From: Candidatus Woesearchaeota archaeon
Lineage (GTDB): Archaea; Nanobdellota; Nanobdellia; SCGC-AAA011-G17; GW2011-AR18
Direction: 5' to 3'
DNA: 64,000 nt
NCBI GenBank assembly: GCA_964344975.1
Contig: CAYFPK010000001.1
Coordinates: 15,485-79,484, forward strand
Positions 6,818 to 64,000 of this stretch are shown in pieces; the first letter of the stretch is position 1, and every line of letters starts with the position of its first letter. The notes beneath the pieces are model-generated. The model did not search any database and was not told where the DNA came from. It was given only the letters and a program-made list of their open reading frames with translations. Position numbers and translations under genes: made by a program.

Positions 6818-7900
6818 ATGTTACCACTCAAAAAAACAACAAATAAACTAAGCAATATACTTAAAAAGACAAAACAAGAAGAACCACTCATGATTAAGGT
6901 ACTCATTGTTGACGATTCTATGTTCATGCGCAAAATGATTGCCGACATTTTGGAAGAAGATCATAGAATAAAAGTTATAGCAACAGCAAAAAATGGTTTT
7001 GAAGCGTTAGACAAGATCCAACAGTTAAAGCCTGATGTAGTTACACTTGACCTTGAAATGCCAAAAATATCTGGCCTTGACACATTATACGAAATAATGC
7101 GTACCAACCCCACGCCAACAGTCATAATTTCTGCATATTCTCCGATGGGATCAAAAGAAGCAATCCTTGCACTACAATACGGAGCAATTGACATAGTAGA
7201 AAAACCATCAGGCCCCATTTCTATGAACATCAGCACGATCAAAGAACAAATACTTGCCGCAGTAAAAGCTGCAGCAAACGCTAACCCACAGCAAGTGCAT
7301 AAATTTATCAAAAAAAAGATAGCAAGAAAAATAAAAGTAAAAAAAGAGATAATTCTCATTGCAGCATCGTCAGGGGGCCCACCAGCCATTGAAAGCATTT
7401 TAAAAACGTTTCCCAAACGATTTCCAATCCCCATCGTGATACTGCAACACATGCCAAGACATTTCACAAAAGCCTTTGCCGAACGCCTCAACCGTGTCTG
7501 CCATATAGCAGTAAAAGAAGCAGAGGACAACGAAAAACTCTGCAACGGCCAAGTATATATAGCCCCTGGTGGCAAGGATTTAACATTTGAAAAAAAAGTT
7601 ACCTCGGTCCGGATAAGGTTAACAGAGGCAAAGCAGCAGCTGACACCGAATATTGATACAACATTCAATTCAGCAGCACAAATATACAGAGAAAAAGTAC
7701 TTGCAATCATCCTCACTGGCATGGGTAGTGATGGAGCCCAAGGTGCACTACAACTAAAGAACAAAGGAGCACAAATACTCGCTCAAGATAAAAAAACAAG
7801 CACGGTGTTCGGTATGCCACAAGCAGTCGTCGCGTTAAACGCAGCTGACGAAGTAGTTTCTTTGCCAAACATGCCAGAAACAATGAATAAGTATTTATAA
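6818..7900 (+). CDS. cheB: chemotaxis response regulator protein-glutamate methylesterase CheB (receiver + methylesterase)
   Basis: Receiver domain (KVLIVDDSMFMRKMI...VVTLDLEMPKISGL). C-terminal methylesterase with the catalytic Ser in the AASSGGP context, plus ...HMPRHFTKAFAERL... and ...GMGSDGAQG.... The alternative ATG at 6890 (MIKVLIVDD) is a likelier true start. Confidence 0.75.
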   Translation: MLPLKKTTNKLSNILKKTKQEEPLMIKVLIVDDSMFMRKMIADILEEDHRIKVIATAKNGFEALDKIQQLKPDVVTLDLEMPKISGLDTLYEIMRTNPTPTVIISAYSPMGSKEAILALQYGAIDIVEKPSGPISMNISTIKEQILAAVKAAANANPQQVHKFIKKKIARKIKVKKEIILIAASSGGPPAIESILKTFPKRFPIPIVILQHMPRHFTKAFAERLNRVCHIAVKEAEDNEKLCNGQVYIAPGGKDLTFEKKVTSVRIRLTEAKQQLTPNIDTTFNSAAQIYREKVLAIILTGMGSDGAQGALQLKNKGAQILAQDKKTSTVFGMPQAVVALNAADEVVSLPNMPETMNKYL

Positions 7901-27594: not shown

Positions 27595-28197
27595 CTAAAC
27601 CGCAACAGCACGCCCACGTTTAATCAACACGTCAGTTAATTCTTTGGGCAAACTAGCAATGTCAGACGCAACAAACGGCCCATACACCGATTCATCCACA
27701 CCGACAAACGCAGGCACAGCGTGCAAAAACCGAATCAACACAACTTCAGAAGAGCTAGCCACAGCACCACCATACGACACAGCAGGTAAACTACACTGTA
27801 ACAAATTACCCAACACGCCATGACGGTACGCATCAAACAAACTAACTAAATGCTCATACAACTCCCGCTCTTCCTTTAAGAGCAACCGCACGCCAGGCAA
27901 AGCGGTTTCTTGACGAGAACTAAGTAAAGCCAACTGCAAAATTTTATGCTCACGTTTCTCATACAAATCCCGCAAGATTTTATGCACCTGTTCAAGCTGC
28001 CGACGCGTTTTAGCAACTGACGACGAGGCAAAGATACTCTCCTTTTTCTCTTGGGATGCTAAAATAGCTTTTTTCTCAGAAACGTACCGCACAATTTGTG
28101 CGTACAAAAGGGGATCTAGCGGCTGAATCTCCGGCTTCGTCTTCTCCAAACGAAGTAACTCGTACAAACGATCATACGTGATAACGGCATCAGTCAT
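27595..28197 (-). CDS. possible GINS-like (Sld5/Psf1 A-domain) replication protein; longest ORF extends to 28221
   Basis: MTDAVITYDRLYELLRLEKTKPEIQPLDPLLYAQIVRYV...KILRDL...LKEERELYEHLVSLFDAYR resembles the helical A-domain of archaeal GINS subunits. Pattern-level recognition only. Confidence 0.35.
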   Translation of the reverse strand: MTDAVITYDRLYELLRLEKTKPEIQPLDPLLYAQIVRYVSEKKAILASQEKKESIFASSSVAKTRRQLEQVHKILRDLYEKREHKILQLALLSSRQETALPGVRLLLKEERELYEHLVSLFDAYRHGVLGNLLQCSLPAVSYGGAVASSSEVVLIRFLHAVPAFVGVDESVYGPFVASDIASLPKELTDVLIKRGRAVAV

Positions 28198-28255
28198 ACA
28201 CACTAAAGAACAAAGATACATTTAACTATTTCGCGACAGCAAAGCACAGATTAAA

Positions 28256-46687: not shown

Positions 46688-47300
46688 TTCCTTCTTGCAC
46701 AATTTCCATGGGACATTTCTTCCCATCAGGCTCTTCTAAAGCAAACTCACGAGGGTTTGTAGAGAGTAAAATAATATAACGACAAAATGTACGAAGAAGA
46801 TTTCCACCAACATTTTTCACGCCCCCAGTGGCAAAGTCAGCATAGACTTGGTTGATTAACAACACAGGAATAGATTGTTGGTTTAAACGAGACAAATGTT
46901 GTAATTGAGCAATCATAGATTGATTAGCAGCATCAGCATCTTCACGTAAAGCCATTCTATACAAATGACCGATGGTATCAACAACAACCAACGAAACATT
47001 GGTCGGCAAAGACAAAATTATTTTTTCTTGCTCCAAAAAACTACGACAGGGCAAAACAAAGAGGTTAGATAAATAAGAATCACATTCAGGGTCCAATTGG
47101 CGTAACCGGTCAAGAGAAAACCCTTCTTCGGTATCAATATAGATAACTTTACGGCCATACTTAGCTGCAATCAACGCAGCATGCATACCCAAAGTGGTTT
47201 TGCCTGAAGCAGGCTCACCGTAAATCATGGTTAAGACAGAATCAGGGTACCCACCAATAAAACGATCAACCGTATCTGACCCAGAACTAATTTTTGGCAT
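46671..47300 (-). CDS. radB: RadB-like RecA-family ATPase
   Basis: Walker A GEPASGKTT, Walker B VVVDTIGHLYR. Short (~209 aa) RadA paralog typical of archaeal RadB. Confidence 0.6.
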   Translation of the reverse strand: MPKISSGSDTVDRFIGGYPDSVLTMIYGEPASGKTTLGMHAALIAAKYGRKVIYIDTEEGFSLDRLRQLDPECDSYLSNLFVLPCRSFLEQEKIILSLPTNVSLVVVDTIGHLYRMALREDADAANQSMIAQLQHLSRLNQQSIPVLLINQVYADFATGGVKNVGGNLLRTFCRYIILLSTNPREFALEEPDGKKCPMEIVQEGITLLL

Positions 47301-48059: not shown

Positions 48060-50348
48060 ATGAAACCTGAAGAGAACAGAGACGTAAAACTAAAAGTGCT
48101 TGAGGCACTCCAAGAAGAAGCGTATAAAGGTATTGTGAGAATAGACTCACAAACCATGCGCGGCATTAACGTACGCCCAGGTGACATTGTTGAAATTGAA
48201 GGTAAAAGAAAAACAGTCGGTGTAGTTGACAGAGCTTACCCAACCGACGTTGGCCGTGCAGTCATTCGCATGGACGGAATTCTCAGACGTAACGCACGAA
48301 CATCTTTAGGTGAAGACGTAAAGGTGCGAAAAGCTGATGTAAAAGAAGCAACAAAAATTACCTTAGCGCCAGCACAACAAGGTGTAACTATTCAGGCAGA
48401 TCCATTACTATTCAAAAGAGGATTACTCGCAAGAGCCGTGATGGTCGGCGACCAGTTAGCTTTAGGTGGAACACGCAGACGTAAGCGAACCATGGTAGGT
48501 TCCCCGTTTGAAGACATGTTCGACATTTTTGAAGATTTTAACAGCGGGTTCGGGTTTGGTTCATTAAAATTCATCGTGGTAAAATCAGAACCAAAAGGTC
48601 CTGTCATTATCACAGAAAATACAACTATTAACATTAATCCAAAAGCAACTGAAGTAACTGAAGAACATGCAATCGATGTAACCTATGAAGACATCGGTGG
48701 GTTAACTGAAGAGGTTAAAAAAATAAGAGAGATGGTAGAGTTACCATTAAAACATCCTGAAATTTTTGAAAGATTAGGTGTACAACCACCACGAGGAGTT
48801 TTATTACACGGCCCACCAGGTACAGGTAAAACATTGCTAGCAAAAGCTGTAGCTAATGAAACAAACGCACATTTCATCCATTTAGACGCACCGGCAATTA
48901 TGAGTAAATTTGTCGGTGAAGCAGAAAAGAAAATTCGAGAAATTTTCGAAGACGCAGAAAAAAACGCACCAGCAATCATTTTCTTAGACGAAATTGACGC
49001 GGTGGCAACCAAACGTGAAGAAAGTTACGGTGAAGTGGAAAAACGAGTAGTAGCACAACTCTTAGCAACCATGGACGGATTAAGGTCACGAGGAAGAGTG
49101 GTAGTCATTGCGGCAACCAACAGACCAAACTCAATTGATCCTGCATTAAGACGCCCAGGACGTTTTGACAGGGAAGTAGAAATTGGCGCACCAAAAAAAG
49201 AAGGACGATTACAAATTTTAAAAATCCATACAAGAAATATGCCGTTAGATAAAAGTGTAGACTTAGAAGAAATTGCACGCGTAACACACGGCTTTGTCGG
49301 TGCAGACTTAGAAGCATTATGTAAAGAAGCGGCAATGGTGGTATTAAGAAAAGTTTTACCAGAGTTGCAAATGCAAAAAGATGAACCAATCCCAAAAGAA
49401 ATTTTAGAAAGGCTAAGAATTACGTACGGTGACTTTAGAGAAAGCCTCAAACTAGTAAGACCATCAGCCATGCGTGAAGTGTTAGTTGAAGCACCCAACG
49501 TAAACTGGAGTGACGTGGGTGGACTAGAAAACATCAAACAAGAACTTAAAGAAGCAGTAGAATGGCCACTCAAAAAGCCACACATTTTCAGACGCCTAGG
49601 GATCAGACCGCCAAGAGGAATCATTTTATACGGCCCACCGGGAACAGGTAAAACCCTTTTAGCAAAAGCGGTAGCAAACGAATCTGAAGCAAACTTCATT
49701 TTAGTTAAAGGTCCTGAACTCTTATCAAAGTTTGTCGGCGAATCAGAAAAAGGCATTAGAAAAATTTTCAAAAAAGCAAGACAAACAGCACCAACGATCA
49801 TTTTCTTTGACGAAATTGACGCAATAGCACCGCAACGTGGACGTAACATGGACACAAACGTAACAGAACGCGTAGTCAACCAACTGCTAACAGAGATTGA
49901 CGGCCTAGAAGAATTAAATGATGTAGTAGTTATCGGTGCGACAAACAGACCAGATATTATGGATCCCGCATTATTAAGACCAGGACGTTTCGACAGAGTA
50001 ATTTTAGCACCAGTACCAGATAAAGAGTCAAGACAAAAGATTCTACAAATTCATTCAGCAAAAATGCCACTAGCAGAAAGTGTGAACATCCAAACCTTAG
50101 CTGAAAAAACGCAAGGGTACGTCGGTGCAGATATTGAAGGGCTATGTCGTGAAGCAGCAATGATCGCATTACGTGACAACGAAAGCACAGAAATTGTTGA
50201 GATGCAACATTTCCAAAAAGCATTAGAAAAAGTACACCCATCTGTTCGCGAAGAAGATATGAAAAAGTACGAAGAAATCGAAGAAAGTTACTTAAGAACA
50301 GCTCGCGCACAAGCAATGTCTAAAGCACAAACAAACTATTTTGGTTGA
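48060..50348 (+). CDS. cdc48: Cdc48/VCP-like AAA+ ATPase (two AAA domains)
   Basis: N-domain, D1 ([15 protein letters not shown]...DEIDA) and D2 ([15 protein letters not shown]...[11 protein letters not shown]) with second-region-of-homology motifs. Confidence 0.9.
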
Positions 50349-51549: not shown

Positions 51550-52557
51550 ATGGGCATCAACTTAGCAAGTATCATTCCAAAAGAAGAAATCAAGTTTGAA
51601 GATCTTAAAGGCAAAAAGGTAGCAGTAGACTTCTCCAATATGGCCTATCAATTCCTAGCAAGCATTAGGCAACCAGACGGCACTCCTTTACAAAACAGCC
51701 AAGGAAAAACAACATCACATTTGCAAGGAATATTGTCACGAGTGAGCAATTTAACAGAAAAAGAAATTAAACTTGCTTTTGTCTTTGACGGCAAACCGCC
51801 ATTACTTAAAGTAAAAGAACTTGAAGCACGTGCACACAGAAAAGTGCTCGCAAAACAAAAGTATGACACAGCAATGCAAGAAGATAATGTAGACGACGCA
51901 TACAAGTACAGTAAGCAAACCATCAGATTAACAAAAGAGATGAAAGAAGAATCGCAAGAACTCCTAGAAGCTATGGGGTTTCCCTGTATACAAGCCCCCC
52001 AAGAAGCTGAAGCACAAACAGCATACATGACCAAAAAAAATGATGTCTTCGCAGCAGCATCTTCTGATTACGACAGTTTACTGTTTGGCTGTCCAAGAAG
52101 TATTCGAAACTTAACACTGGCACAAAAAAGAAGACTACGGGGTGGAAAATATGTATACACGTTTTTAGAACTCATGAAACTTGAAAAAATAAAAAAAGAA
52201 CTAGTCATTAACCAAGAACAACTAATAGCAATTGGGATATTAACAGGGACAGATTTTAACAGAGGCGGCATAAAAGGGATTGGCCCAAAAAAAGCAATAA
52301 AGTTAGTTAAAGAGAAAAAAACGATAAAAAACATCTTCAAAGATCTTGAGTGCGACTTTGATCCAGAAGAAATTTACAACATTTTCACCAAAATGCCCAT
52401 TGAAGAAAAATACAAACTAGTATGGAAACAACCAAACGAAAAAAGGTTGTTAAATTTATTGGTAGACAAAAATGAGTTTAACCAAGCAAGAGTCGAAGGG
52501 TACATAAAAAGACTCAGCAAAAGAGAAAAAACCCAAAAAGGGTTAAGCGACTTTTAA
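51550..52557 (+). CDS. fen1: flap endonuclease FEN-1
   Basis: MGINLASIIPKEEIKFEDLKGKKVAVDFSNMAYQFL is the XPG-N start, followed by XPG-I (GTDFN...GIGPKKA) and an H3TH motif. Confidence 0.85.
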   Translation: MGINLASIIPKEEIKFEDLKGKKVAVDFSNMAYQFLASIRQPDGTPLQNSQGKTTSHLQGILSRVSNLTEKEIKLAFVFDGKPPLLKVKELEARAHRKVLAKQKYDTAMQEDNVDDAYKYSKQTIRLTKEMKEESQELLEAMGFPCIQAPQEAEAQTAYMTKKNDVFAAASSDYDSLLFGCPRSIRNLTLAQKRRLRGGKYVYTFLELMKLEKIKKELVINQEQLIAIGILTGTDFNRGGIKGIGPKKAIKLVKEKKTIKNIFKDLECDFDPEEIYNIFTKMPIEEKYKLVWKQPNEKRLLNLLVDKNEFNQARVEGYIKRLSKREKTQKGLSDF

Positions 52558-55502
52558 AGCGTTTCAACTTCTTCTGTATCAACATCTTCTAACTCAGAAA
52601 AACTACGTTCACCTTCACCAACTTCAACAGTGTCTTCTTCTAAAGAAAGTTCAGGTAAACGCTCATCAGTTACATCCAACCAATCATCTGGTTTTTGCAA
52701 CTGCATGGCATATCGATCAAGAAATTCATGGCGCAGATAATAAAGACTAGTAGCATCTTTATCTGTACTACCAGTAAAGTTTTGAATAGTTTTTAGAGCA
52801 AGCCCATATTTAGCCATTGAAAAAACATGTACAAACGAATCCATAAGCGTCTTAAAACGTGGAGTCAACAAAGAATCAAGGTCAAGACCATACATGACAG
52901 AAAGATCAACAAATGAGGAAAGATGCTCAAAAGCCTCAACAACGGCACTTTCTACTGAAGAGATTTGTAAAAGAACAGTATCCACTGCACGATGTTGTTC
53001 ATCAGTAAGTGCAACACCATCTGTATAGCGCTTAAGCAGACGTCGCAACTTCAAAAACAAAACCTTTTCCTCATCCAAAAGATGTGCAGCATCTAAGATA
53101 GGCGCTGGAGATGTAGAAAGGCGCACATCAAACGGCAAAGAAAGAGCAAGTTCTGCACCAGAAGAATCAAAACCTCTCGCAATAAACGAAAGGACAAGTT
53201 CATCTGAAGGTTTGTAATGCAATTCTAAACCTTCACCAACTTTTTCAACAAAATGCTCCGAATCTGTAGTCCACCATTCCACACGAGCAACATTTTTCGG
53301 AACACCAGTAACATACAAATAGATTTCATCTAAAAGCGAAGCATAAGGTTTACCAGCAACAACCAATTCGGGCAAAGTCACAGCAATAGGACTAACAGAA
53401 AAAAGTAATCGAGTAAAAACTTTTTCACCTAATGAATCTTGCCCCCGGACAAGAAGCTCTTTACGACCAGGCACATGCGGCGTATACAAAAAATCAGCAC
53501 CAACAGTCAGATTTTGAGGAAAAGAAAAGTCACTTGTACGAGAAGCAACATCATAAATATCAACAGAAACAAGGTTTTCCACAAGAGGTCGAGAAGAGCT
53601 AACAGAAAAAACAACAGATTCATCAACAGCTAAACTTGCAGGAAAATTATGTACAACCAAATCAGCAACAGGCGCAGCGCCAACAGTAACCGCCCCCACA
53701 GCAGAACCTAGAAAAGCACCAGACACATGGTACGCCTCAGCACGTAACGTGACCTGTTGACCAGTTAAAGAATCAGCAAATTGATAGACAGCAACAAGAT
53801 CTCCTGCAACAGCAGCATCCTCTGGCAAAGCAGCAACTTCTCCTGAAGCATCAACATACGACCATGTAACAAACGCAGGTGCAGGCCCAGATTTCACTAA
53901 AAGGTGTACAGACAACTCCTCTCCTGCAGCAACAGCATCCTCAGAAACAAGATGATAGATAGGAAGTTCATCAACGGCAGTTAGAATTTGACGCGCAATC
54001 ATAAAATACTGTCCAGCATAACGAACATAGACATACAACGTGTACCTTCCTTCATCATGCAAGCGAAAAGAAACAGGAGAAGAAACTTGCACAGGGCCAA
54101 CAGCATCAGCCACAGCAAACTTTGAAGCAACAAGTTCATCAAAAGTAGACGAGCTCACTGCATAGTAAACATCATACAACGCCGTCGTGTCCACTGCATA
54201 AGAGACATCTGTGTTACAAGCAACAACAGCAGGCCCTTCTATGGTAACAGCAATATCTGCAGGGTGACGTAAAACTGTAATAGGAAACGAAAGTTCATCA
54301 ACAATACCATCCAAGGTATGCAATCGTGCAACTAAACGGTTTGCAGCTAAAGCTTCACCACCCAAAACAAGATCTACAACTATGCCGGCAACATCTTGCG
54401 CAACAACATCATCTAAATCAATAAAGTGTCCAGAAATTTCATATCCCCACAAAACATGCTGTACAGCAAAAGGATCGCCAAAAAAATCTACTGACCAACG
54501 TGAAGGTGAACCAACAAACAAAATGTTAGACCCATCATCCGGCGTTACAGAGAGTAAGAAAGGTACAAAAACAAGCGGCAATTCAATAGCAGAGTCATAA
54601 AGTGGGTGTGTTGCATCAACACAGGGAACTAAACGCACAGAGGTATAATCAACAAGTGCAGAGCGAGAAAAAGTAACAGCACCGTCTCCAACAGGGTAAG
54701 TCATTGCAGAACTCGTAAAGGATCCATCACTAGACAAAAAATCTACGCGAATAAAAGCAACATCAGAATCCGCAAAGGACTGATAAGCTAAAGTAACTTC
54801 TTCACGGTCAACACGCAACTCCTGCTCATCAACAAACAGATGAAACCGCCGCTCATAAGAAAAATCGCGAGAAACTGAAGCTAAAACCACATCACCACGA
54901 GAAAGAACTTCAACAACAATTTGTCCAGAACTTCCAACAACAGCAGTAGGTTTCCAAACTAAAACAACGTCACGCTGTGGGCGATCTAAAGGCAAAAGTT
55001 GCATAAGGGTACGTTTATTAGCAACGACCTGATACAAAGCAACAGAGGCAACATCTTTAAGCGAACCTGCTAAATGAATAGGGATAGAGATTTGATCACG
55101 ACTCATAATCTGGTAGGTTTCATCTGTAGCTGCAAAGGAAGCATCAATAGTAACAACTAAAGGCGCAGAAACAGTAGGCGCAGAAACAGGCTGCGGTTCC
55201 TCACGAGGAAAGTGTAAAGCAATGGGAGTAATTTTAACTAAAGATGCATCAGATTTTTTTTTAGCAATTAAAAAAAGAGTTGCATCATCATACTGGTTAT
55301 AAAAGTCAGTAACATCACAAGCTAAAGCAGGAAGCACATCAGAACCAAATCGATGCGGCTCAAGTTTATCTTCAGTAATAGCAATAGCTTTGTCCAAGTC
55401 AGCATCAACATCAAAACGATCAAGGTCCCCGGGCAAAACCAAATAAAAAAAATCAAGGTCAGAATGTAAACGTATAGAACGGTAATATATTTTAGGATTC
55501 AT
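52554..55502 (-). CDS. giant uncharacterized protein D (982 aa), last gene of a four-gene coupled operon
   Basis: No recognisable domain, signal peptide or TM. Predicted beta-rich, repetitive V/A/S/D-rich segments. Acidic C-terminal tail (...EDTVEVGEGERSFSELEDVDTEEVETL). ATG overlaps the stop of gene C (ATGA at 55499-55502). Confidence 0.55.
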   Translation of the reverse strand: MNPKIYYRSIRLHSDLDFFYLVLPGDLDRFDVDADLDKAIAITEDKLEPHRFGSDVLPALACDVTDFYNQYDDATLFLIAKKKSDASLVKITPIALHFPREEPQPVSAPTVSAPLVVTIDASFAATDETYQIMSRDQISIPIHLAGSLKDVASVALYQVVANKRTLMQLLPLDRPQRDVVLVWKPTAVVGSSGQIVVEVLSRGDVVLASVSRDFSYERRFHLFVDEQELRVDREEVTLAYQSFADSDVAFIRVDFLSSDGSFTSSAMTYPVGDGAVTFSRSALVDYTSVRLVPCVDATHPLYDSAIELPLVFVPFLLSVTPDDGSNILFVGSPSRWSVDFFGDPFAVQHVLWGYEISGHFIDLDDVVAQDVAGIVVDLVLGGEALAANRLVARLHTLDGIVDELSFPITVLRHPADIAVTIEGPAVVACNTDVSYAVDTTALYDVYYAVSSSTFDELVASKFAVADAVGPVQVSSPVSFRLHDEGRYTLYVYVRYAGQYFMIARQILTAVDELPIYHLVSEDAVAAGEELSVHLLVKSGPAPAFVTWSYVDASGEVAALPEDAAVAGDLVAVYQFADSLTGQQVTLRAEAYHVSGAFLGSAVGAVTVGAAPVADLVVHNFPASLAVDESVVFSVSSSRPLVENLVSVDIYDVASRTSDFSFPQNLTVGADFLYTPHVPGRKELLVRGQDSLGEKVFTRLLFSVSPIAVTLPELVVAGKPYASLLDEIYLYVTGVPKNVARVEWWTTDSEHFVEKVGEGLELHYKPSDELVLSFIARGFDSSGAELALSLPFDVRLSTSPAPILDAAHLLDEEKVLFLKLRRLLKRYTDGVALTDEQHRAVDTVLLQISSVESAVVEAFEHLSSFVDLSVMYGLDLDSLLTPRFKTLMDSFVHVFSMAKYGLALKTIQNFTGSTDKDATSLYYLRHEFLDRYAMQLQKPDDWLDVTDERLPELSLEEDTVEVGEGERSFSELEDVDTEEVETL

Positions 55503-56878
55503 CTAAACCAATCATCCTCCGAATCACCAGAAAAGTTTACATCTTCTTTGCCCGCAAAAATATCGGCATACGGATCCGCAGAGACTGCAGGTTCAGGTGA
55601 AAGTTCAGCAGGAGCAGTTGCAACTTCAGGCTCAGCTGCAAGCTCACTTTCACCAACTTTTACCTTAGGCTCATCAGTAATAGTAAACGTGTAACTGCGA
55701 TGTGCAAGATCTTTTCGTTCCCCAGAAGAAGAGATTCGTGAAAGGTAAACATCCAAAGTGACCTCTGAAAACTCAGCAAAGAGATCGAAATGATCAAAAA
55801 GCGAAGGGTTCTCATTATCAAAAAGAGACAAAACATCGCCTGTTGCAGAACTTTTCCAACTAAATTGTAAGTCTGGAGCAAGTACTGCCCGCTCAACATC
55901 CGTAAGACCTTGTATGGAGAAATAAAGCCAAGCATCAGCAAGATCAGATCGGGCAACAGTATATTGCATATGTTTACGCAAACCTTTACGAACCATACGA
56001 CCATCAACATGACGCATAGAGCTTAAAGAAAAGTCCAGCTTTAGTTTCGGCGCTGCAAACCTAAGCGAATATTGTTCAAAGAAAAGTTCATCAGAATGAT
56101 CAACATACTCTTTTTTATCTTTAGGTAAAACAACAAGATAAAGCTTGGGTGAATCAATAGAACTAAAATGCACATCAAGACCTGTCTTAGCAAAAGAGCG
56201 CTGCAGATCAGAAGAAGAGACATAGTAAAGAACATCATCACGTGAACGTGTACAAGCAACATAAGAGGATGAATGGCTAGTAGAGCTTTGAATACGAACA
56301 AAAACAGAGTAATCTTTAGGTTTAGCTTTAACAAACTTAAAGGCAATGCGAAAATCTTCAGGGTTTGTAACAGTAAAAGATACAGCTTTACGCCAGTTAG
56401 GCTCAGCAGAAACATTCTTAGAATATTTTTTAATAAAATTCAAGCCAAACCCATCAGGCAAGGTTGGTTTTTCTTGAGCAGGAGACTTTAAAGAAGAAAG
56501 TTCTTCATCATCAAGAATTTTTTCTCGAGCAGGTGCATGAGTAGACTCATCTATAAGTTCCTCAGGTTTTTCAGGACGCGTAGCAGCAACATAAAAATAA
56601 TCATAAAAAGCCCGACCACTCTCTTTATCTTGCAGTAACACACACACTGTCGCCATAGGGTAGTCCTTAAATGCTAGAGCAGAACAAGTAGAGGCATCAA
56701 AGTCAAAAATATAAACAGTTTTCCGAATTCTATAAGCAAAAAAAGAGGGATACTTTTTTTCTGCAAAAATTTTAGGAATTCTTGAAGCAACAAGAAATCC
56801 AGGGTAAATACAATAAGAGACAGAATCAGGAGCAACAACATCCTTAGGAATAGCCAAACGGATATATCGCCAGCTCAT
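55499..56878 (-). CDS. uncharacterized protein C (459 aa) of the coupled operon
   Basis: No motif. Acidic and aromatic C-terminus (...NFSGDSEDDWFR). ATGA overlaps at both ends (56875-56878 and 55499-55502). Confidence 0.55.
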   Translation of the reverse strand: MSWRYIRLAIPKDVVAPDSVSYCIYPGFLVASRIPKIFAEKKYPSFFAYRIRKTVYIFDFDASTCSALAFKDYPMATVCVLLQDKESGRAFYDYFYVAATRPEKPEELIDESTHAPAREKILDDEELSSLKSPAQEKPTLPDGFGLNFIKKYSKNVSAEPNWRKAVSFTVTNPEDFRIAFKFVKAKPKDYSVFVRIQSSTSHSSSYVACTRSRDDVLYYVSSSDLQRSFAKTGLDVHFSSIDSPKLYLVVLPKDKKEYVDHSDELFFEQYSLRFAAPKLKLDFSLSSMRHVDGRMVRKGLRKHMQYTVARSDLADAWLYFSIQGLTDVERAVLAPDLQFSWKSSATGDVLSLFDNENPSLFDHFDLFAEFSEVTLDVYLSRISSSGERKDLAHRSYTFTITDEPKVKVGESELAAEPEVATAPAELSPEPAVSADPYADIFAGKEDVNFSGDSEDDWFR

Positions 56879-58686
56879 TTTTTCTCGTCCTCCAACAAAT
56901 ATGCAATATCAGCTGACTCAGGCTCATCTAAAAATACAAAACGGTTTTCATCAACACCTAAAACCGCAAAATCTTCAGCACGACCAACAGGCGGAGAATC
57001 AATAGATTCGCGATCAGCTTCAGACTCATCAACAACTGGCGGTTCAACTTCCTCTTCAGGAATTAAAGAAGAAAAGTCAGGACTCTTGGAAAAATCAAAT
57101 CTAAAAAAAGCAGAGTTCTCATCACAAGAATAACGAATCGACTTAGGCATCGCTCCCGACTTCGTTGCAATAGGACCTAAAGCAATAGGGGTTTGAAAAC
57201 GGTCAGGCCTTCTTTCAGGGCCAGAGGTACCTTTAGCAAAGGGCAAACGCCAAAAAGAGATTGTTTTTCCCTCAAAAGCAGGATAAAAACTAAGACGAGT
57301 AGAACGGTATGAAGAAAAAAGATCAGTAACAAACCGAGAGGTAAAAAGAAACCTTCCATCTTCAGAAAAAGGTTCTCCTGAGTAGGAATTTCCAGCATAA
57401 AGATTGCAGGAAAAACCAACAGGAAAATCAGAAAGATTCGCAATAGTTGCAACAACGGGTTGTGAAGAGTACGGTTTATTTAATAGGACATAGTAATAAT
57501 AAATTTTTGGATCAGGACCACTAAGAAGTCTATCCAATAAAGAATCTCTCGGAGCAAGTGTTTTCACAACTGGATAGTTCAGCAAGATTTTCATCACAGG
57601 CATCTTCGGCATAGGGTCAGTTAACACCAAATAGTTCCAACCAACAATATCACCATGAGTTTTCTCACGGCCACTCACCACAACACAAAGTAACGTAAAC
57701 GTTTTAGGGTAAGGTTTTTTAAGCCGTTCACGATAATTACAATCCCACTCCAAAGAAGTTCCAAGACCCACAGGTTTACGTTTACCACGATACACTTTTG
57801 CAACATCCTTAAGCGTCAACGCCTTTTTGCCACGCACAACATACCACAAGACTGTCGCTTTCAAAGGTACATCACGCGCAGCAACCTCTAAAGTTGTATC
57901 GGTTAAAGGCAACAGCCCCTTGTGCAAATCAGAACCCACAAACGCAGCAGTATCAACAGGAGACATAATATGCACACGGGAAACTCCACGGGAAACTTCT
58001 TCTCCAGGTACTTCTTCAGTTGGAGGTTCAGGCGTAGAAAGAGGAAGTAACGGGTCAAATCTAAACAAGAACTCAGAGGTAGTCAAAAGATGTTTATCAG
58101 AGTAACGAAGAAGTGAAGCATCTAAGCGAACAACATCTGCACCATCTCCAAGTTCATCACAGATAAAATGGCTCAGCACAAGTAAAAAAGAACCATCTTC
58201 TTGAGCAACCAAAGTATGTGCAGCAAGAACAGCGCTGGTAAAAAGAAATGCACGGCCATCTTCAGTAACAAGAGAAACCTCCAATTCATAGTCTTGAAGC
58301 CGTTCCCCAGAAAGTTTAAAGGCAATCTTGGCATCATCCACACGAGTTCCATCAAAAAGCAGTACATCTTTGCGAAAACCAAAGGCACCTTCCTTGGCAA
58401 AACGCAGGTGAGCACAAAAGTTAGGATCAATATCAACTCCAAGAGATTCAGCAATCTCCTCTTCATCCACAATTTCAACAGGCACTTCTACAGGCACGTG
58501 AAACGAAAACAACACAGGCGCAGTAACAGCAATTTGTTCACCACCCACATCATAAAGTTCAGCAGAAATCTCATACTCTCCAGAAGATACCATCTTACTT
58601 AAAGCAACAAACTCAGAGGTAAAATCATAGGTAAAGTCATCACCCGCAGCAGGTTCCAAGATAAATCCTTTCTTAAACTTCTTCAT
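56875..58686 (-). CDS. uncharacterized protein B (~603 aa) of the coupled operon; longest ORF extends to 58746
   Basis: ATG at 58686 (MKKFKKGFILEPAAGDD...) overlaps the TGA of gene A (ATGA at 58683-58686). No motif. Acidic C-terminus. Confidence 0.55.
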   Translation of the reverse strand: MKKFKKGFILEPAAGDDFTYDFTSEFVALSKMVSSGEYEISAELYDVGGEQIAVTAPVLFSFHVPVEVPVEIVDEEEIAESLGVDIDPNFCAHLRFAKEGAFGFRKDVLLFDGTRVDDAKIAFKLSGERLQDYELEVSLVTEDGRAFLFTSAVLAAHTLVAQEDGSFLLVLSHFICDELGDGADVVRLDASLLRYSDKHLLTTSEFLFRFDPLLPLSTPEPPTEEVPGEEVSRGVSRVHIMSPVDTAAFVGSDLHKGLLPLTDTTLEVAARDVPLKATVLWYVVRGKKALTLKDVAKVYRGKRKPVGLGTSLEWDCNYRERLKKPYPKTFTLLCVVVSGREKTHGDIVGWNYLVLTDPMPKMPVMKILLNYPVVKTLAPRDSLLDRLLSGPDPKIYYYYVLLNKPYSSQPVVATIANLSDFPVGFSCNLYAGNSYSGEPFSEDGRFLFTSRFVTDLFSSYRSTRLSFYPAFEGKTISFWRLPFAKGTSGPERRPDRFQTPIALGPIATKSGAMPKSIRYSCDENSAFFRFDFSKSPDFSSLIPEEEVEPPVVDESEADRESIDSPPVGRAEDFAVLGVDENRFVFLDEPESADIAYLLEDEKK

Positions 58687-60908
58687 GGACGTTTTCCCCC
58701 AAAAGGCCACCAACCCTTTTTTTTCTTGGCAGGTCGCACATGCCACACAATGCGATCAACACGGTCAGCCACTTCACCAGGCTCTAAGCGAGCAACAACG
58801 GGACCTCCAGCAGTTACTTCAGCAGGCATATCCAAATGAACAACAGGCAAAGGTGTAGCTTCATCAGAGGTTTCTGCAAGTATAGACAAAAAATAATCCT
58901 CTGAAGACAAAATGGAGCGATCGTACTCAACATCCGCATCAGGCGCAAAGACTTTGAAAAAGAAAAGATAAGGTTTCCCAAAAGCAGGCGGATATTCAGA
59001 AGAAAAATGGCGGCGAAGTTGAGAAAGATCAAAAAGATAGGATCCATCATCCTCCATAAACATACCGGGAAAAAGAGTGGTACCATCCTGAGATCTAAAG
59101 AGAAGTGAAAGTTGATAAGGTATAAAATCCTTTTTTTGCAACTGTAGTCCAAGATGTAGTGGTACAGATGAATGAAAATCAGCAAAAGAGATTCTAAATT
59201 CATAAGGGGTACGCCAAGAAGGTGTAGAAATACCCGAGGATTTATTTTTCAAAAAGCGAAATTTAAAATCCTTTGGTAGAGTAGGAGGTCCATCCGCTTC
59301 AGGCTCTTCAGGACTAACTCCTTCACCTACAACTTCAACAAAAATAAGGTCATAATTAACACGCTCACCAGCATCATCATAACCTGCAACAGCAACCGTG
59401 TAAAGGTTCGAATCAAGCGGAGGAGTAGAAAAAGTAGTTAAGACTCCTCTTGCAGAGGGTCTAACAGAAATATGATCAAAAGAAACATATCCTGGTACAA
59501 TACTCCAACCAGAAGAAACAACTGAAGAACCAAATAGTGCACTAAAAGTCAACTCAGTATTTGCCGGAACTTGCACAAAGTTTTTATCTTTTCTAACTTT
59601 TATTTTAAACTCTTTCCAATCAGATCGCGCAGCAACAATCCTCACAGAAGTAGCTCGAGCAGCTTCACCCAGTTCAGCATCTTCATCTTTGCCTCGCCGC
59701 CACTTTCGCTTTAAACGTTCCCACCAATTAAGACCTTCATCCTCAGGCTTAACCTCTTCAGGTTCAGGAAGAATAGGAGCAACAGTATCATTAACAATTT
59801 GAACACCATGCACACCTGATGACGCTTTTGCGCCAGTCTCAGTATCGGTACAGGTTACTTCTAAACCAAGGTTCATGCGTTGCCCAGGCCGCAACCCATA
59901 ACGTGCAAGATCTAAGGTAATCGAATCTAAGTTCGGACCAGCAAAACGTTGTGGATAATTTTTCACACGCCACTTAAACTGATAAATACGGCCAGGTTCT
60001 CCACCTTGCACATGAGCAATGAGACGCAACGTAGGACTAGCTGAAATTCGTACAGGGTCAATGGCAGGCTCATGATGAAGTATAACAGTAAATGAAGCAC
60101 GTGGCGTTGATCTAAAAAGCCCACCGAATTTTTTAAACGGCCAAAGAGCAAGACCACCAAGTCCTTTTGCAGCACCCCAGCCAAGACCACCAACACCTTT
60201 AGCAGCGCCCCAACCTTTATCGCCAGTCCACTTAGCAGCTCCCCAACCTTTATCGCCAGTCCACTTAGCAGCACCAACACCTTTATCTTTTCCAGAAGAA
60301 GAAAGGCGACCAAGACCGTGCCAAAAACCTTCCTTAGCACCATCTTCACCAGCACCATACGCAGCAACACGATCTTTAGTACCACGTAAGATATGAATTA
60401 ATAATAGCAACCCTAAGAGTAAAGCTACAGGAAGCAAAAATTCTGCAGGGATAGGTATCCAATAAAACAACTGCGGGTACCACAGATAGCCAACAAGTAA
60501 AGCAGCAAGTAAAATGCCAATAAGGTACATCCCCGACCCATGCGTTTTATCTTTAACCAAGTGATACAAAAACCCAACAGCAATGATACCTAAGAAAACT
60601 AACACAAACGGACCAATGCTAAAAAGTGAAAACCCTTGATAAATTTCCCAGGTAACAAGTGCAAGTGAACATACTAGCCCAAGTGCAAAAGCAAGGTTCT
60701 TTGAAGTTTTACCATCACCACCCACTAACGGTTTGAGGGCAACATCAAAAAGTAAAGACAAAACAAGAAAGGCAACAAAAAAATCGAGCCAACCGTAATA
60801 ATCATAATACAAATCTAGAGGAGTAAAAACAACAGCAGAAACTAAAGGTAAACAAAGTAGCAACAGAGCAAAAACTAGCAAAAACCTACCTCTTTTTAGC
60901 ACAAACAT
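58683..60908 (-). CDS. polytopic membrane protein A (~741 aa; longest ORF extends to 61121) with W/G-rich tandem repeats, first gene of the coupled operon
   Basis: From ATG 60908: MFVLKRGRFLLVFALLLLCLPLVSAVVF..., about 8 TM helices in the first ~230 aa. Then GKDKGVGAAKWTGDKGWGAAKWTGDKGWGAAKGVGGLGWGAAKGLGG (exact 33-bp tandem duplication at 60208..60273). Then a ~450 aa hydrophilic beta-rich domain. Basic C-terminus. Start at 60908 is preferred because 61121 would overlap the divergent Trm5-like gene by 158 nt. Confidence 0.5.
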   Translation of the reverse strand: MFVLKRGRFLLVFALLLLCLPLVSAVVFTPLDLYYDYYGWLDFFVAFLVLSLLFDVALKPLVGGDGKTSKNLAFALGLVCSLALVTWEIYQGFSLFSIGPFVLVFLGIIAVGFLYHLVKDKTHGSGMYLIGILLAALLVGYLWYPQLFYWIPIPAEFLLPVALLLGLLLLIHILRGTKDRVAAYGAGEDGAKEGFWHGLGRLSSSGKDKGVGAAKWTGDKGWGAAKWTGDKGWGAAKGVGGLGWGAAKGLGGLALWPFKKFGGLFRSTPRASFTVILHHEPAIDPVRISASPTLRLIAHVQGGEPGRIYQFKWRVKNYPQRFAGPNLDSITLDLARYGLRPGQRMNLGLEVTCTDTETGAKASSGVHGVQIVNDTVAPILPEPEEVKPEDEGLNWWERLKRKWRRGKDEDAELGEAARATSVRIVAARSDWKEFKIKVRKDKNFVQVPANTELTFSALFGSSVVSSGWSIVPGYVSFDHISVRPSARGVLTTFSTPPLDSNLYTVAVAGYDDAGERVNYDLIFVEVVGEGVSPEEPEADGPPTLPKDFKFRFLKNKSSGISTPSWRTPYEFRISFADFHSSVPLHLGLQLQKKDFIPYQLSLLFRSQDGTTLFPGMFMEDDGSYLFDLSQLRRHFSSEYPPAFGKPYLFFFKVFAPDADVEYDRSILSSEDYFLSILAETSDEATPLPVVHLDMPAEVTAGGPVVARLEPGEVADRVDRIVWHVRPAKKKKGWWPFGGKRP
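60150..60290. repeat. 33-bp tandem repeats inside membrane protein A (encodes the KGWGAAKWTGD units)
   Basis: Unit ccccaacctttatcgccagtccacttagcagc(t) occurs as two exact adjacent copies (60208..60273), flanked by degenerate copies. Confidence 0.7.
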
Positions 60909-60934
60909 GTCTAAATGCAAAATCGGCGAAATGG

Positions 60935-60943
60935 TTATATAAA
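60935..60943. promoter_or_regulatory. palindromic TATA box (ttatataaa) between divergent membrane protein A and the Trm5-like gene
   Basis: 20 nt upstream of ATG 60964 (plus) and 26 nt upstream of ATG 60908 (minus). Confidence 0.45.
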
Positions 60944-60963
60944 GCTTGTGATAACATAAACAG

Positions 60964-61944
60964 ATGAAAGCAGCTAAAATCCCACTAAGCAAGGCACAAG
61001 AAGAAAAAAAACGCCTTTTTGACAAAGGGGTAATAAACAAAGAATATAAAGCAAAAAGAGACAAAAAATTTTTGTACATTCCTCTCATAAAAGAAATAAA
61101 AGGCATTAAAATGGTCAACAAAGTGTTTGAAAAAAAACAACGTATAACAGCAAAAACAATATTAAAAAAAGTGTTAACAAAAGAACAATTAAAACTCCTC
61201 CCATCTGCCTACGATGTGATAGGTAGCATCTTAATTTTCGAACTTAAAAGTGAGTTAACAAAAAAGGAAAAGGTTATTGCACAAGCATATTTGCAAGCAA
61301 ACAAAAATGTAGAGACCGTAGCAAAAAAGCAAGGCATCCACCACGGCGTGTACAGAACACAAAACATCAAAATTTTAGCAGGAAAAAACACGAAGGTAAC
61401 CACACATAAAGAGAACGGGATTCAAATTGAACTCAACGTAGAAAAGGTCTATTTTTCACCGAGAACAGCAACAGAAAGGCTAAGAATAGCAAAATTGACA
61501 AAAAAAGGTGAAGAAATTTTAGTACCATTTGCTGGCTGTGCCCCATTTCCATTAGTGATGAAAAAGCAAAACCCGACCGTAAAAATAACAGCAATTGAAC
61601 TCAATCCAACAGCATGTAGATACGCTAAAAAAAATTGTAAAAAAACAGACATAGAAGTCATCTGCGGTGATGTGAAAAAAGCAATCCCAAAAAAGACTTA
61701 CGACCGAATCATCATGCCCTTACCTAAATCCGCTGAAGAGTTCTTGCCCACGATAAAAAAACATGTCAAAAAAGGCACAAATATCCACGTGTACGCATTT
61801 AATCTAGAGCAAACCGCACAAGACATCAAAAAGCGCCTAGAAAAGGAGCATACATGGCTTAAAGTGCAAAAAACCGTCAAATGCGGCGACTATGGCCCAA
61901 ACATCCACAGGTACTGTTTTGACTGTAAAGCGAAAGGTATTTAA
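60964..61944 (+). CDS. Trm5/Taw2(TYW2)-family tRNA methyltransferase
   Basis: SAM-binding motifs (ILVPFAGCAPFPL, ...DRIIMPLP...) typical of the Trm5/Tyw2 class I methyltransferase family. N-terminal D1-like domain. Confidence 0.6.
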   Translation: MKAAKIPLSKAQEEKKRLFDKGVINKEYKAKRDKKFLYIPLIKEIKGIKMVNKVFEKKQRITAKTILKKVLTKEQLKLLPSAYDVIGSILIFELKSELTKKEKVIAQAYLQANKNVETVAKKQGIHHGVYRTQNIKILAGKNTKVTTHKENGIQIELNVEKVYFSPRTATERLRIAKLTKKGEEILVPFAGCAPFPLVMKKQNPTVKITAIELNPTACRYAKKNCKKTDIEVICGDVKKAIPKKTYDRIIMPLPKSAEEFLPTIKKHVKKGTNIHVYAFNLEQTAQDIKKRLEKEHTWLKVQKTVKCGDYGPNIHRYCFDCKAKGI

Positions 61945-61971
61945 AGAAACTACTACTAACAAAGAGTAACA

Positions 61972-62358
61972 ATGCCTTTAACAGATATCACTCAAGGACT
62001 TTTAGGAACCGCAATGATTGCTAGCGCAATTACAGCAGCAGTATTCGCATATCAAGGCTGTAATAGAAGTGAAGCCGAAGAGCTAGGCATCACAGTATGT
62101 CCAAACGGCATTTATTTAGCAAACGGTCACTGGGATCCACAATCCGACTATTTTGAAGTACGAGACGTAGGTATCGACATCAATGGTAACCCGGTTGAGC
62201 AAGGAACATACCAATTTCCAAAAGACAACGTCTTAGTTGGTCTTGACCTTGAACGTTGTGAATTTCGAAGTGCTGAAGATATGTACGAAGGACACTTAAC
62301 ACCGTTCGTTTTACAAGCACAACCAGACGGTTCATTGCAAAAAATAACAAGACCTTAA
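61972..62358 (+). CDS. small N-terminally anchored protein with a Cys pair
   Basis: 128 aa. Hydrophobic N-terminus (LLGTAMIASAITAAVFAY), then a hydrophilic domain with 3 Cys. Confidence 0.35.
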   Translation: MPLTDITQGLLGTAMIASAITAAVFAYQGCNRSEAEELGITVCPNGIYLANGHWDPQSDYFEVRDVGIDINGNPVEQGTYQFPKDNVLVGLDLERCEFRSAEDMYEGHLTPFVLQAQPDGSLQKITRP

Positions 62359-62448
62359 AAACTAAAACAACTTCTAATCATCGAGGGATGATTTAGTGAA
62401 CACCCGCGGATCCTTTCAGGAGATGACGGACGGTAGTAGCTGATGACC

Positions 62449-64000
62449 TCACAATCCTAATTTTTCAAAGGCAGAACCTTTTGCTTTAACAGCAACAGGA
62501 GCATCAGCACCATGCCACGTTTTTCGAGGATGAATTTGCAGTGGATACATTTTCTCAGCAGTATCATCTAAGACCAAAGCAGCCCCTTTCATACGCGGCA
62601 ACATATCAAAATATTTCTGAATCTGCCCTGGCAAATATGAATGCATCATCGCATTCAAAGCAGCAATGTCACGTTTAGAAGTTAAACGGTGTGACAACAC
62701 TATGTCAGTTTGCGTAATAACATCGGTATGAATCTCACCGGGCTGTTGAGTCGCTAAAACTAAACTCACACCAGGCTGACGCCCTTCACGAAGCACCTGT
62801 ACTAACGCATCCGTTGCAGGCGTCACCGCATCTTTAGGTAAAAACTCATGGGCTTCATCGACAAGCAACCAGACCAAAGGCATCTGCGAACCTACAGCCC
62901 CCATTTGTGAAGAAAAATACGAATGACCACGTTGCACATCATCAAGTTCTTCAACTTTACGATGCGCCATACGCTGTTGCATTAACTTACGAGTTAAAAG
63001 CCCAACGACCAAACTTTTTATGTTCCAATCAGCATAACAACTCACATCAAGAATACTCACCTTACCGCCAGCAACAATCTCAACTAAAGGCGTAGCATCA
63101 ACAGAAAAAATTCCCCAAGACGCAGCTGCAGAAAATCTGTTTTCACAGGCTAAACGCAGCGAAGCAGTTAATCGCGTGTCAGCACGAACAGCGGCAAGTA
63201 AATCACTTAAATCATACACATCTTTTCGAGAAGAAACGCTTCGTACAACACGATCAAGCGCAATACCCAAATCAGAGAACAGCGTTACACCAAACACCCC
63301 ACACCAGTCGGAGCTAGATAGTTCACTTGGTAAAATCGTAAAAGGCGCATCAACAGGAATCCCTGCCTCTTTTTGTGAAGTAAACGCACCTGCAGGGGTA
63401 TACAACGTCACATCAAGACCCTGCGCACGTAACCCCCACTCATCAAGCAAATCTTCTTGTTTGACGTTAGGATACTTCATGGTCCAAAACACCCCCATGG
63501 TATCAAAAATTAACACGGCAATTTTTTCTTTAATCTCAGCATCTAGAGAAGAGATTTCTTCAGCTATTGCAGCTAAGGTGTAAGAATTATGAACAATAAT
63601 ATCATTTGCAACAAAGTTATGAGTCTCAGGAACACAAAAATCATAAACCTCAAATTCACCGTCAAGATATTCTAAAGAGACAATCTCATCCCAAAAAATG
63701 TCTGATTGAGCAAGCTGTGCGATCGCAGGTTGGTTATCAGCAAGAGCAATTTGTAGCAACGTTTGCCTATGTGGTGCATAGCGAATTCTTTCACGCATGG
63801 CCTTGGGGTGCGCATAACCCATAGCACGTCCAACTGCAGCCCAATTAGCAGGCCTATACAAATCCCAAATACCTTTCGGAATAGTGTCAATATTTGAATT
63901 AGAAGCAATTTTAGCTAAATCAGCCAGACAACGTTGAGCTTTCTGCTTTTTGGCACCATAAAACCCGATTTCTTCAATAAACTTCTCACGACTTTCGGAC
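62449..64000 (-). CDS. HerA/FtsK-superfamily (DUF87-like) P-loop ATPase interrupted by an intein; 5' end lies beyond the window edge
   Basis: The reading frame is open from 64000 with no stop. Residues ...DIFWDEIVSLEYLDGEFEVYDFCVPETHNFVANDIIVHN|S are the canonical intein C-terminal splicing block (HNFxANxIxVHN followed by +1 Ser), placing the intein/C-extein junction near 63586. The C-extein carries Walker B and downstream motifs (LVWLLVDEAHEFLP, ...LVLATQQPGEI...). Upstream in-window sequence (KFIEEIGFYGAKKQ...) is consistent with a homing-endonuclease region. Confidence 0.6.
   Translation of the reverse strand, partial: SESREKFIEEIGFYGAKKQKAQRCLADLAKIASNSNIDTIPKGIWDLYRPANWAAVGRAMGYAHPKAMRERIRYAPHRQTLLQIALADNQPAIAQLAQSDIFWDEIVSLEYLDGEFEVYDFCVPETHNFVANDIIVHNSYTLAAIAEEISSLDAEIKEKIAVLIFDTMGVFWTMKYPNVKQEDLLDEWGLRAQGLDVTLYTPAGAFTSQKEAGIPVDAPFTILPSELSSSDWCGVFGVTLFSDLGIALDRVVRSVSSRKDVYDLSDLLAAVRADTRLTASLRLACENRFSAAASWGIFSVDATPLVEIVAGGKVSILDVSCYADWNIKSLVVGLLTRKLMQQRMAHRKVEELDDVQRGHSYFSSQMGAVGSQMPLVWLLVDEAHEFLPKDAVTPATDALVQVLREGRQPGVSLVLATQQPGEIHTDVITQTDIVLSHRLTSKRDIAALNAMMHSYLPGQIQKYFDMLPRMKGAALVLDDTAEKMYPLQIHPRKTWHGADAPVAVKAKGSAFEKLGL

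Follow-up and report, generated by a model that had tools for sequence, protein, structure and literature searches.

A predicted LAGLIDADG intein in the P-loop of a HerA-like DUF87 ATPase from a Woesearchaeota-type archaeon

HerA is known in archaea as the translocase of the HerA-NurA system for DNA end resection, and in bacteria as an anti-phage protein that pairs with SIR2 or DUF4297. Inteins have been documented in the phosphate-binding loop (P-loop) of other ATPases, including MCM site a, DnaB site b and RFC-S site a (Novikova et al. 2016, PMC4760082). In addition, conditional splicing is described for P-loop or ATPase-domain inteins of RadA and DnaB (PMC4513877, PMC6195587). Here, we analyze a minus-strand gene at the end of a 64,000-nucleotide stretch of archaeal DNA (contig CAYFPK010000001.1, positions 15,485 to 79,484; hereafter the window). 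With a probability of about 0.9, this gene encodes the 854-residue precursor of a HerA-like hexameric DUF87 ATPase of Woesearchaeota type, which carries a 415-residue class-1 LAGLIDADG intein at GKRGSGK↓S (arrows mark splice junctions).

The closest curated or characterized relatives of this intein are bacterial DnaB inteins. The match to PRK07773, an intein-containing replicative DNA helicase, covers residues 53-478 of the precursor (E=1.8e-84) and includes the endonuclease part, and the part of the intein within the window matches the solved DnaB mini-inteins 1MI8, 4O1R and 6FRG (E~1e-21) with a near-identical block F/G, SDIYWD..V.DL.VP..HNFVANDIIVHN. Cys1, the TxxH motif, the final HN and Ser at +1 are common to both; however, the host here is an archaeal HerA-like ATPase and the insertion site is the K↓S of Walker A. 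With the surveyed P-loop inteins (PMC4760082) the element shares insertion in the P-loop of a replication/repair-type NTPase, whose unspliced precursor must be inactive, as well as multiple insertion points clustered in nucleotide-binding motifs. HerA, DUF87 and COG0433 do not occur in the main text of that survey. The literature searched contained neither a DPANN host nor two sites three residues apart in one Walker A motif (G↓SGKS and GSGK↓S), and no description of the present intein was found in literature on inteins with HerA, DUF87, DPANN or Woesearchaeota.

The intein and its precursor

The minus-strand frame 62449-63999 contains 516 stop-free codons, ends in TGA and, as the initial annotation had stated, is open at the window edge; a start at an internal TTG (62449..63861) in the mechanical listing of open reading frames (ORFs) is an artefact. 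The frame encodes the last 138 residues of the intein and, beginning with Ser+1, a 378-residue C-extein. All strings quoted in that annotation are present at their positions, beyond what chance would give: the in-window fragment alone matches Pfam Intein_splicing (E=3.7e-11, 43.5 bits, cut-off 35.8), as well as Zot and, below threshold, HerA_C. The parts of the frame are as follows.

63586..63999, minus strand: C-terminal part of the intein, 138 residues, equal to residues 339-476 of the full-length precursor P0001; the intein runs on past base 64000
63946..63999, minus strand: SESREKFIEEIGFYGAKK, last conserved LAGLIDADG homing-endonuclease block; Pfam LAGLIDADG_3 covers in-window residues 1-12
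63745..63894, minus strand: segment of ~50 residues between the endonuclease domain and block F, NIDTIPKGIW...PKAMRERIRYAPHRQTLLQIA; many columns at least 90% conserved
63586..63651, minus strand: splicing blocks F and G, EVYDFCVPETHNFVAN-DIIVHN, with penultimate His and terminal Asn; TIGR01443 match
63583..63585, minus strand: Ser+1 codon TCT, first residue of the C-extein and also the Ser of Walker A, GKRGSGK-S
62452..63585, minus strand: C-extein, 378 residues, body of the HerA-like (DUF87) P-loop ATPase
62842..62880, minus strand: Walker B, PLVWLLVDEAHEF (VWLLVDEAHEF); in some relatives itself an intein insertion point (site b)
62731..62793, minus strand: LREGRQPGVSLVLATQQPGEI, HerA-type REGR(K/Q)xG...Q(R/Q)P motif downstream of Walker B
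62449..62451, minus strand: stop codon TGA

Inside the window, the intein is represented by the last part of its LAGLIDADG endonuclease domain, by a conserved linker region that is helical, and by blocks F and G. It ends with ...EVYDFCVPETHNFVANDIIVHN (closing letters HNFVANDIIVHN) and is followed by SYTLAAIAEE (63556-63585). The proposed C-terminal splicing block with Ser at +1 is a canonical HN↓S junction (DIIVHN↓S, 63583-63603) that is kept across homologs; Ser+1 acts as the nucleophile of trans-esterification. We take the SESREKFIEEIGFYGAKK block to be H/EN4 in intein block nomenclature, and the string FIEEIGFYGAKK to be the last endonuclease block of the intein; IGF.G..K in this block is at least 90% conserved in 110 intein-bearing homologs. 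The NIDTIPKGIW...PKAMRERIRYAPHRQTLLQIA segment, which matched no Pfam family, probably serves the intein as a linker or as an accessory module for DNA binding. When all six frames of the window were scanned with a hidden Markov model (HMM) built from the 110 homologous inteins, the edge ORF was the sole match (E=1.6e-71), and no second intein of this type was detected.

A protein search identified the complete precursor, P0001 (854 amino acids, aa), which is 100% identical over the query. Its 7650-bp contig (L001, ENA sample ERZ930068) is 99.94% identical to window positions 59096-64000, with three mismatches in 4905 bp, and reaches 2745 bp beyond base 64000. Contig extension, which the initial annotation had suggested, yielded both the N-extein and the N-terminal splicing motif, whose absence that annotation had named as grounds for refutation. 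P0001 consists of an N-extein (residues 1-61), the intein (62-476, 415 aa) and the C-extein (477-854). The N-extein ends ...HVVLVSGKRGSGK, with the Walker A sequence GKRGSGK. The intein begins with Cys1 (GKRGSGK↓CLHGDTLITL), contains block B (TPEHPLL) and two LAGLIDADG motifs (LLAYLIAEGH and FLNRLFSCDGS), all of them outside the window, and ends IIVHN. The L001 ORF is uninterrupted over 2565 nt and starts with ATG; a TTTATAT sequence ~33-26 nt upstream is presumably an archaeal TATA box.

Intein models from Pfam (Intein_splicing, 91.4 bits, cut-off 35.8) and NCBIfam (TIGR01445 intein_Nterm, 53.9 bits, cut-off 24.5; TIGR01443 intein_Cterm, 26.8 bits, cut-off 15.6) match P0001 above their cut-offs, in agreement with the earlier call of an intein. 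The Pfam LAGLIDADG_3 match (65.9 bits, cut-off 22.5) covers residues 269-350 and extends into the first 12 in-window residues, so that the description of the in-window part as homing-endonuclease-like was correct. Cys1, TPEHPL, LAYLIAEGH, FLNRLFSCDG and HNF.AND.IVHN are at least 90% conserved in the 110 homologs, and the same is true of the acidic E and D residues of the two LAGLIDADG motifs. The element is a class-1 intein with a two-motif LAGLIDADG homing endonuclease, for which splicing and DNA cleavage are predicted.

The intein boundaries were set by P0001 together with the intein-free orthologs P0030 and P0120 (438 aa), which are 70-71% identical to P0001. Because these orthologs read GKRGSGK-S/T without a break, with one 415-column gap facing the intein, the insertion point GKRGSGK↓C...N↓S is exact, and the previously suggested insertion after the P-loop lysine (GxxGxGK↓S) proved right. 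The uninterrupted site is GCTGGTAAGCGAGGAAGTGGTAAG↓TCTTACTCC... in an intein-free relative and ...GGAAGTGGTAAG↓TCTTACTCC... on the syntenic contig L002. The spliced extein has 439 aa with intact GKRGSGKS and VWLLVDEAHEF motifs, the latter being the Walker B-like motif that the annotation had noticed in the C-extein.

With the intein in place the P-loop is interrupted, so ATP binding by the precursor should be impossible. Splicing would start with an N-S acyl shift at Cys1, after which Ser+1 would attack the thioester, the terminal Asn would cyclize with the aid of the penultimate His, and an O-N shift would restore the peptide bond. The expected products are a 439-residue ATPase with a GKRGSGKS loop and a free LAGLIDADG endonuclease. 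The endonuclease is expected to cut the conserved P-loop coding sequence of intein-free alleles, and gene conversion would then copy the intein into them (homing), which would explain the presence and absence of the intein among close relatives. The mature ATPase would most likely be a HerA-like ring that translocates double-stranded DNA, with no adjacent NurA partner and amid replication and housekeeping genes; here, we infer both hexamer formation and DNA translocation.

The host ATPase and its relation to HerA

The spliced extein matches Pfam DUF87 (36 bits, cut-off 23.2), HerA_C (29.8 bits, cut-off 22) and Zot (34 bits, cut-off 20.3). Among PDB sequences it is closest to archaeal HerA and to the HerA proteins of anti-phage systems (E from 2e-11 to 3e-6), with alignments that span Walker B and the EGR(K/Q).G...Q(R/Q)P segment. 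Within this segment, LREGRQPGVSLVLATQQPGEI aligns with EGRKYG...SQRPSEI of the solved HerA proteins and is invariant or nearly so in the family. An AlphaFold (AF2) model of the intein-free ortholog P0030, built on a 112-sequence alignment, had a predicted local distance difference test score (pLDDT) of 92 and a predicted template modeling score (pTM) of 0.90. When it was compared with the PDB by Foldseek, the top 50 matches were almost all HerA, one being the C-domain of DndH. The best matches were the Thermococcus kodakarensis HerA-NurA complex 9x1m and Saccharolobus (S.) solfataricus HerA 4d2i (E from 2e-20 to 1e-18; query TM score, TMq, 0.6-0.68), and a TM score in this range was also obtained for 8xav. 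By these sequence matches and the predicted fold, the host is a HerA/FtsK-like ATPase of the DUF87 type, as had been proposed, and shares with HerA the Walker A, Walker B and REGR.xG...Q.P motifs. Distant members of the family, labeled 'ATP-binding protein', occur in Aenigmarchaeota, one Helarchaeota metagenome-assembled genome (MAG) and others; some are fused to winged helix-turn-helix (wHTH), SAP or DUF835 domains, which fits a DNA-associated role.

Several observations weigh against our interpretation of the gene, and most of them concern the HerA side of it. The identity to 9x1m and 4d2i is 17-19%, so the HerA assignment is one of remote homology. The HerA equivalog models of NCBIfam have cut-offs of 800-970 bits and give 40-48 bits here (NF040819, 45.7 bits versus 970; NF040937, 39.6 versus 800). 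The N-terminal domain of the P0030 model, with three beta-strands and one short helix predicted in the ~45 residues before Walker A, is much shorter than a typical HAS barrel. NurA, Mre11 and Rad50 domains were absent from the ~45 scanned genes of the window and from the recurrent neighbors in 84 related loci. With regard to the intein, its N-terminal two thirds, like the N-extein, lie outside the window and were taken from L001, a near-identical metagenomic contig of which one mismatch is a V/G difference in the C-extein; splicing and homing are taken from established intein chemistry; and pairwise identities of intein and extein, which co-vary for close pairs, are only moderately correlated overall (Pearson 0.53, Spearman 0.28), a level that favors neither vertical descent nor horizontal homing.

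The same observations bear on whether the host could be a bona fide but divergent HerA of double-strand break repair, that is, an ortholog of the HerA of the HerA-NurA-Mre11-Rad50 system, with the intein gating DNA end resection. Structural matches are best to the archaeal HerA-NurA complex and to Sulfolobus HerA, HerA models are also the best NCBIfam matches, and genes for a RadB/Rad51-like protein, FEN1 and topoisomerase IA lie within 20 kb. However, anti-phage HerA proteins score equally well, and the protein is ~60-140 residues shorter than the matched HerA chains (458-581 residues), its ~439 aa including a minimal N-terminal domain. We regard this possibility as unlikely. Orthology to the repair helicase HerA is not supported, because the equivalog cut-offs are missed by a wide margin, few residues precede Walker A and no NurA, Mre11 or Rad50 is nearby. 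Of the annotated 'DNA-end-processing or translocase ATPase', the label of a HerA-like translocase can be kept, whereas end processing finds no support (~46 bits versus 970, and none of the adjacent nurA or mre11-rad50 genes that the annotation had proposed to look for). A SIR2 or DUF4297 partner gene, as found with anti-phage HerA, was likewise absent from the scanned window genes and from the recurrent neighbors in the 84 related loci.

Intein sites and alleles across the family

In the first search, 118 of the top 120 matches carried the intein. This count is misleading because the query contained intein residues: an extein-only query returned mostly intein-free proteins of 432-446 aa, plus some of 573-610 aa with mini-inteins, and near fixation of the intein in the family was rejected as a query artefact. 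The 80 best loci of a genome scan were all uninterrupted; neither this list nor that of the extein-only query is an unbiased measure of intein frequency. Intein-bearing and intein-free alleles are both abundant. When 50%-identity representatives were searched exhaustively with P0030, without a profile, 270 clusters were obtained at E <1e-30, and the 150 clusters listed included members with a full-size P-loop intein, a P-loop mini-intein, a full-size Walker B intein, and inteins at both sites.

Reading the junctions directly from the sequences defined three insertion sites. Site a, GKRGSGK↓C...HN↓S, is the one occupied in the window. Site a', GKRG↓C...SHN↓SGKS, lies three residues upstream and holds mini-inteins of ~140 aa (P0121, P0130, P0278, P0294 and P0306). 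Site b, VDE↓C...HN↓CHEFLP, is inside Walker B and holds an intein of ~430 aa, with Cys in place of the usual Ala at +1 (P0123 and P0128). Three proteins (P0131, P0132 and P0148) have two inteins at once, and such alleles reach 1308 aa. In addition, a single 90%-identity cluster contains both an intein-free protein, P0122, and an intein-bearing one, P0270, whose C-extein sequences agree to ~91% and whose N-exteins, compared by eye, match at 60 of 61 residues. The sequences of this pair indicate a recent gain or a precise loss of the intein.

Third codon positions of the intein (T 52%, A 21%) equal those of the exteins and of other minus-strand genes. Because this composition matches the skew of the host, the intein is a long-term resident of the lineage and not a recent import from a differently composed genome.

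Alternatively, the intein could be kept by the host as a post-translational switch, and not merely as a selfish element, that holds a DNA translocase inactive until splicing is permitted. Its place inside the catalytic P-loop, its fully ameliorated composition, a mean pairwise identity that equals that of the extein (54.4% versus 54.7%) and the clustering of family inteins at three nucleotide-binding-site positions could all be read in this way; precedents are the conditionally splicing RadA and DnaB inteins mentioned above, and selective intein retention has been argued (PMC4760082). However, intein-free alleles are at least as common in close relatives, including pairs with ~91% identical C-exteins, and the endonuclease catalytic residues are conserved, as expected of an actively homing selfish element. 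Moreover, Ser at +1 together with a second Cys that is not conserved leaves no obvious redox switch, and conditionality is not visible in sequence. A switch therefore seems improbable to us. Similarly improbable, in our estimation, is a broader proposal in which DPANN archaea of Woesearchaeota type would use the compact NurA-less HerA-like ATPase as a core motor for handling DNA, e.g., in chromosome segregation or replication-linked translocation, with the inteins at the three sites (G↓SGKS, GSGK↓S and DE↓CHEF, where C replaces A) retained as conditional switches and not as purely selfish elements.

Genomic neighborhood and lineage

Adjacent to the gene in the window lie Trm5/Taw2 and a convergent ORF of 128 aa (61972-62358) that has no family assignment. 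Past the window edge, L001 encodes FKBP and an M48 peptidase in divergent orientation. Elsewhere in the window are genes for FEN1, MetAP, Cdc48, a RadB-like protein, topoisomerase IA, ribosomal proteins S13/S4/S11, SRP54/FtsY, aRF1, eIF2-alpha, GINS51, TruD and others. This gene content is that of a cellular archaeal chromosome and not of a virus or plasmid. The following DNA-metabolism genes, which lie within 12-36 kb of the ATPase gene, contained no intein of the same family.

46671-47300, minus strand: RadB/Rad51-like ATPase, 209 aa
51550-52557, plus strand: FEN1
44501-46687, plus strand: topoisomerase IA
48060-50348, plus strand: Cdc48
27595-28221, minus strand: GINS51

Neighbors were clustered from the ORFs within 5 kb of the gene in the 84 loci, and were identified from example sequences. 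The most recurrent were Trm5/Taw2 (31 loci), the RFC large subunit (27) and a membrane thioredoxin-like protein (24), followed by FEN1 and a DnaG-type primase (21 each), an aminoacyl-tRNA synthetase (20), HtpX (19) and an SSB-like OB protein (10); RFC-S adjoins the gene in two relatives. A conserved operon partner was considered and rejected: no neighbor was present in more than 31 of the 84 loci, and the commonest ones are mostly on the opposite strand. The only candidate for a co-transcribed partner is an acidic protein of ~100 aa with no known function, which is encoded co-directionally 60-90 nt downstream of the ATPase gene in 12 of the 84 loci (e.g., L025). It is absent from this position in the window, where the convergent 128-aa ORF is found.

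This setting also bears on the view that the protein is an ATPase of a mobile element or of a secretion or packaging machine (VirB4/TraC-like, Zot-like, viral packaging or Ced-type DNA import), and that the intein thus marks a mobile-element gene and not a housekeeping one. The Zot match above cut-off (34 bits versus 20.3), weak matches to the STIV B204 packaging ATPase, CedD, EccC and TraB, and the presence next door of four large ORFs without Pfam matches (52554-61121) could suggest such an origin. We consider it very unlikely, since the gene belongs to a syntenic block with Trm5/Taw2, FKBP, HtpX-type M48 peptidase, RFC subunits, SSB, FEN1 and DnaG in many Woesearchaeota genomes, and the rest of the window is made up of genes for ribosomal proteins, SRP54/FtsY, aRF1, eIF2-alpha, GINS and Cdc48. 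In addition, Foldseek places HerA far above VirB4 or packaging ATPases, and no integrase, capsid or type IV secretion system (T4SS) genes were seen.

Finally, a decaying pseudogene that has lost splicing or its N-terminal part and yields no functional ATPase, as might be supposed from the window itself, which contains neither the N-extein nor intein residues 1-277, is extremely unlikely in view of the uninterrupted L001 ORF with its ATG start and upstream TTTATAT box, the presence of every catalytic residue for splicing and of the acidic residue in each LAGLIDADG motif at the conservation given above, and the invariant extein motifs.

The lineage of the host agrees with the archaeal origin given in the initial annotation, although the closest characterized inteins are those of bacterial DnaB. 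Nearly all of the 80 loci of the genome scan are titled Woesearchaeota, Nanoarchaeota, Nanoarchaeia, Pacearchaeota or Nanobdellota, and we assign the host to the DPANN archaea, Woesearchaeota/Nanoarchaeota type. A cyanobacterial or other bacterial origin, suggested by a block F/G nearly identical to that of the Ssp DnaB intein, was rejected because the gene neighbors Trm5/Taw2, the window contains archaeal aRF1, eIF2-alpha, GINS and Cdc48, and homologs are named Woesearchaeota or Nanoarchaeota. Several GTDB-representative MAGs that contain the gene (L023, L032, L034, L036 and others) are titled 'uncultured Methanosarcinales archaeon', which is probably a taxonomic mislabel.

Some further features of the window were observed. 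Four consecutive minus-strand ORFs without a Pfam match, coding for 982, 459, 623 and 812 aa, occupy 52554-61121. The 812-aa product is a membrane protein with a multi-pass hydrophobic N-terminal half, and its ORF contains 33-bp tandem repeats (60149-60287) that encode 11-residue units of the GAAKWTGDKGW type. Large unannotated ORFs also follow Trm5 in the syntenic locus on L002. These four ORFs may encode lineage-specific surface or membrane proteins. At the other end of the window, genes for a CheB methylesterase/response regulator, a Cache-type sensor-domain protein and two KaiC-like ATPases lie close together (1390-2250, 3183-4349, 5601-6134 and 6818-7900), which hints at a chemotaxis or signaling capacity that would be unusual for reduced archaea. 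A tRNA scan of the window found none.

The window also has an extreme strand asymmetry. Its plus strand contains 25220 A and 13770 T (AT skew +0.29), and the skew is positive in every 4-kb bin, with no switch and independent of gene orientation; third positions are ~50% A in plus-strand genes and 50-57% T in minus-strand genes. The syntenic locus of a related genome, L002, has the same bias (absolute value 0.22). A few other Woesearchaeota loci, L039 and L053 among them, reach 0.16-0.29, and the median of 73 loci is 0.05. The asymmetry points to a strong, lineage-restricted mutational bias, possibly caused by replication that runs one way over long distances. For a Microgenomates genome of the Candidate Phyla Radiation (CPR), an analogous disparity has been reported, but of G/C and not A/T (PMC7143001).

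In this study, we describe a mobile protein-splicing element in a conserved DPANN gene. It is an ordinary example of a well-known kind, and its mechanism involves no departure from textbook intein biology. Our analysis corrects database names, in that many copies are labeled only 'LAGLIDADG family homing endonuclease' or 'hypothetical protein'; some are already labeled 'intein/homing endonuclease'. It also defines a widespread, uncharacterized family of NurA-less HerA-like ATPases that is encoded among replication genes in Woesearchaeota and Nanoarchaeota. The natural series of alleles in this family, which includes intein-containing, mini-intein, double-intein and intein-free forms at three sites, could serve studies of homing, intein loss and intein-gated ATPases.

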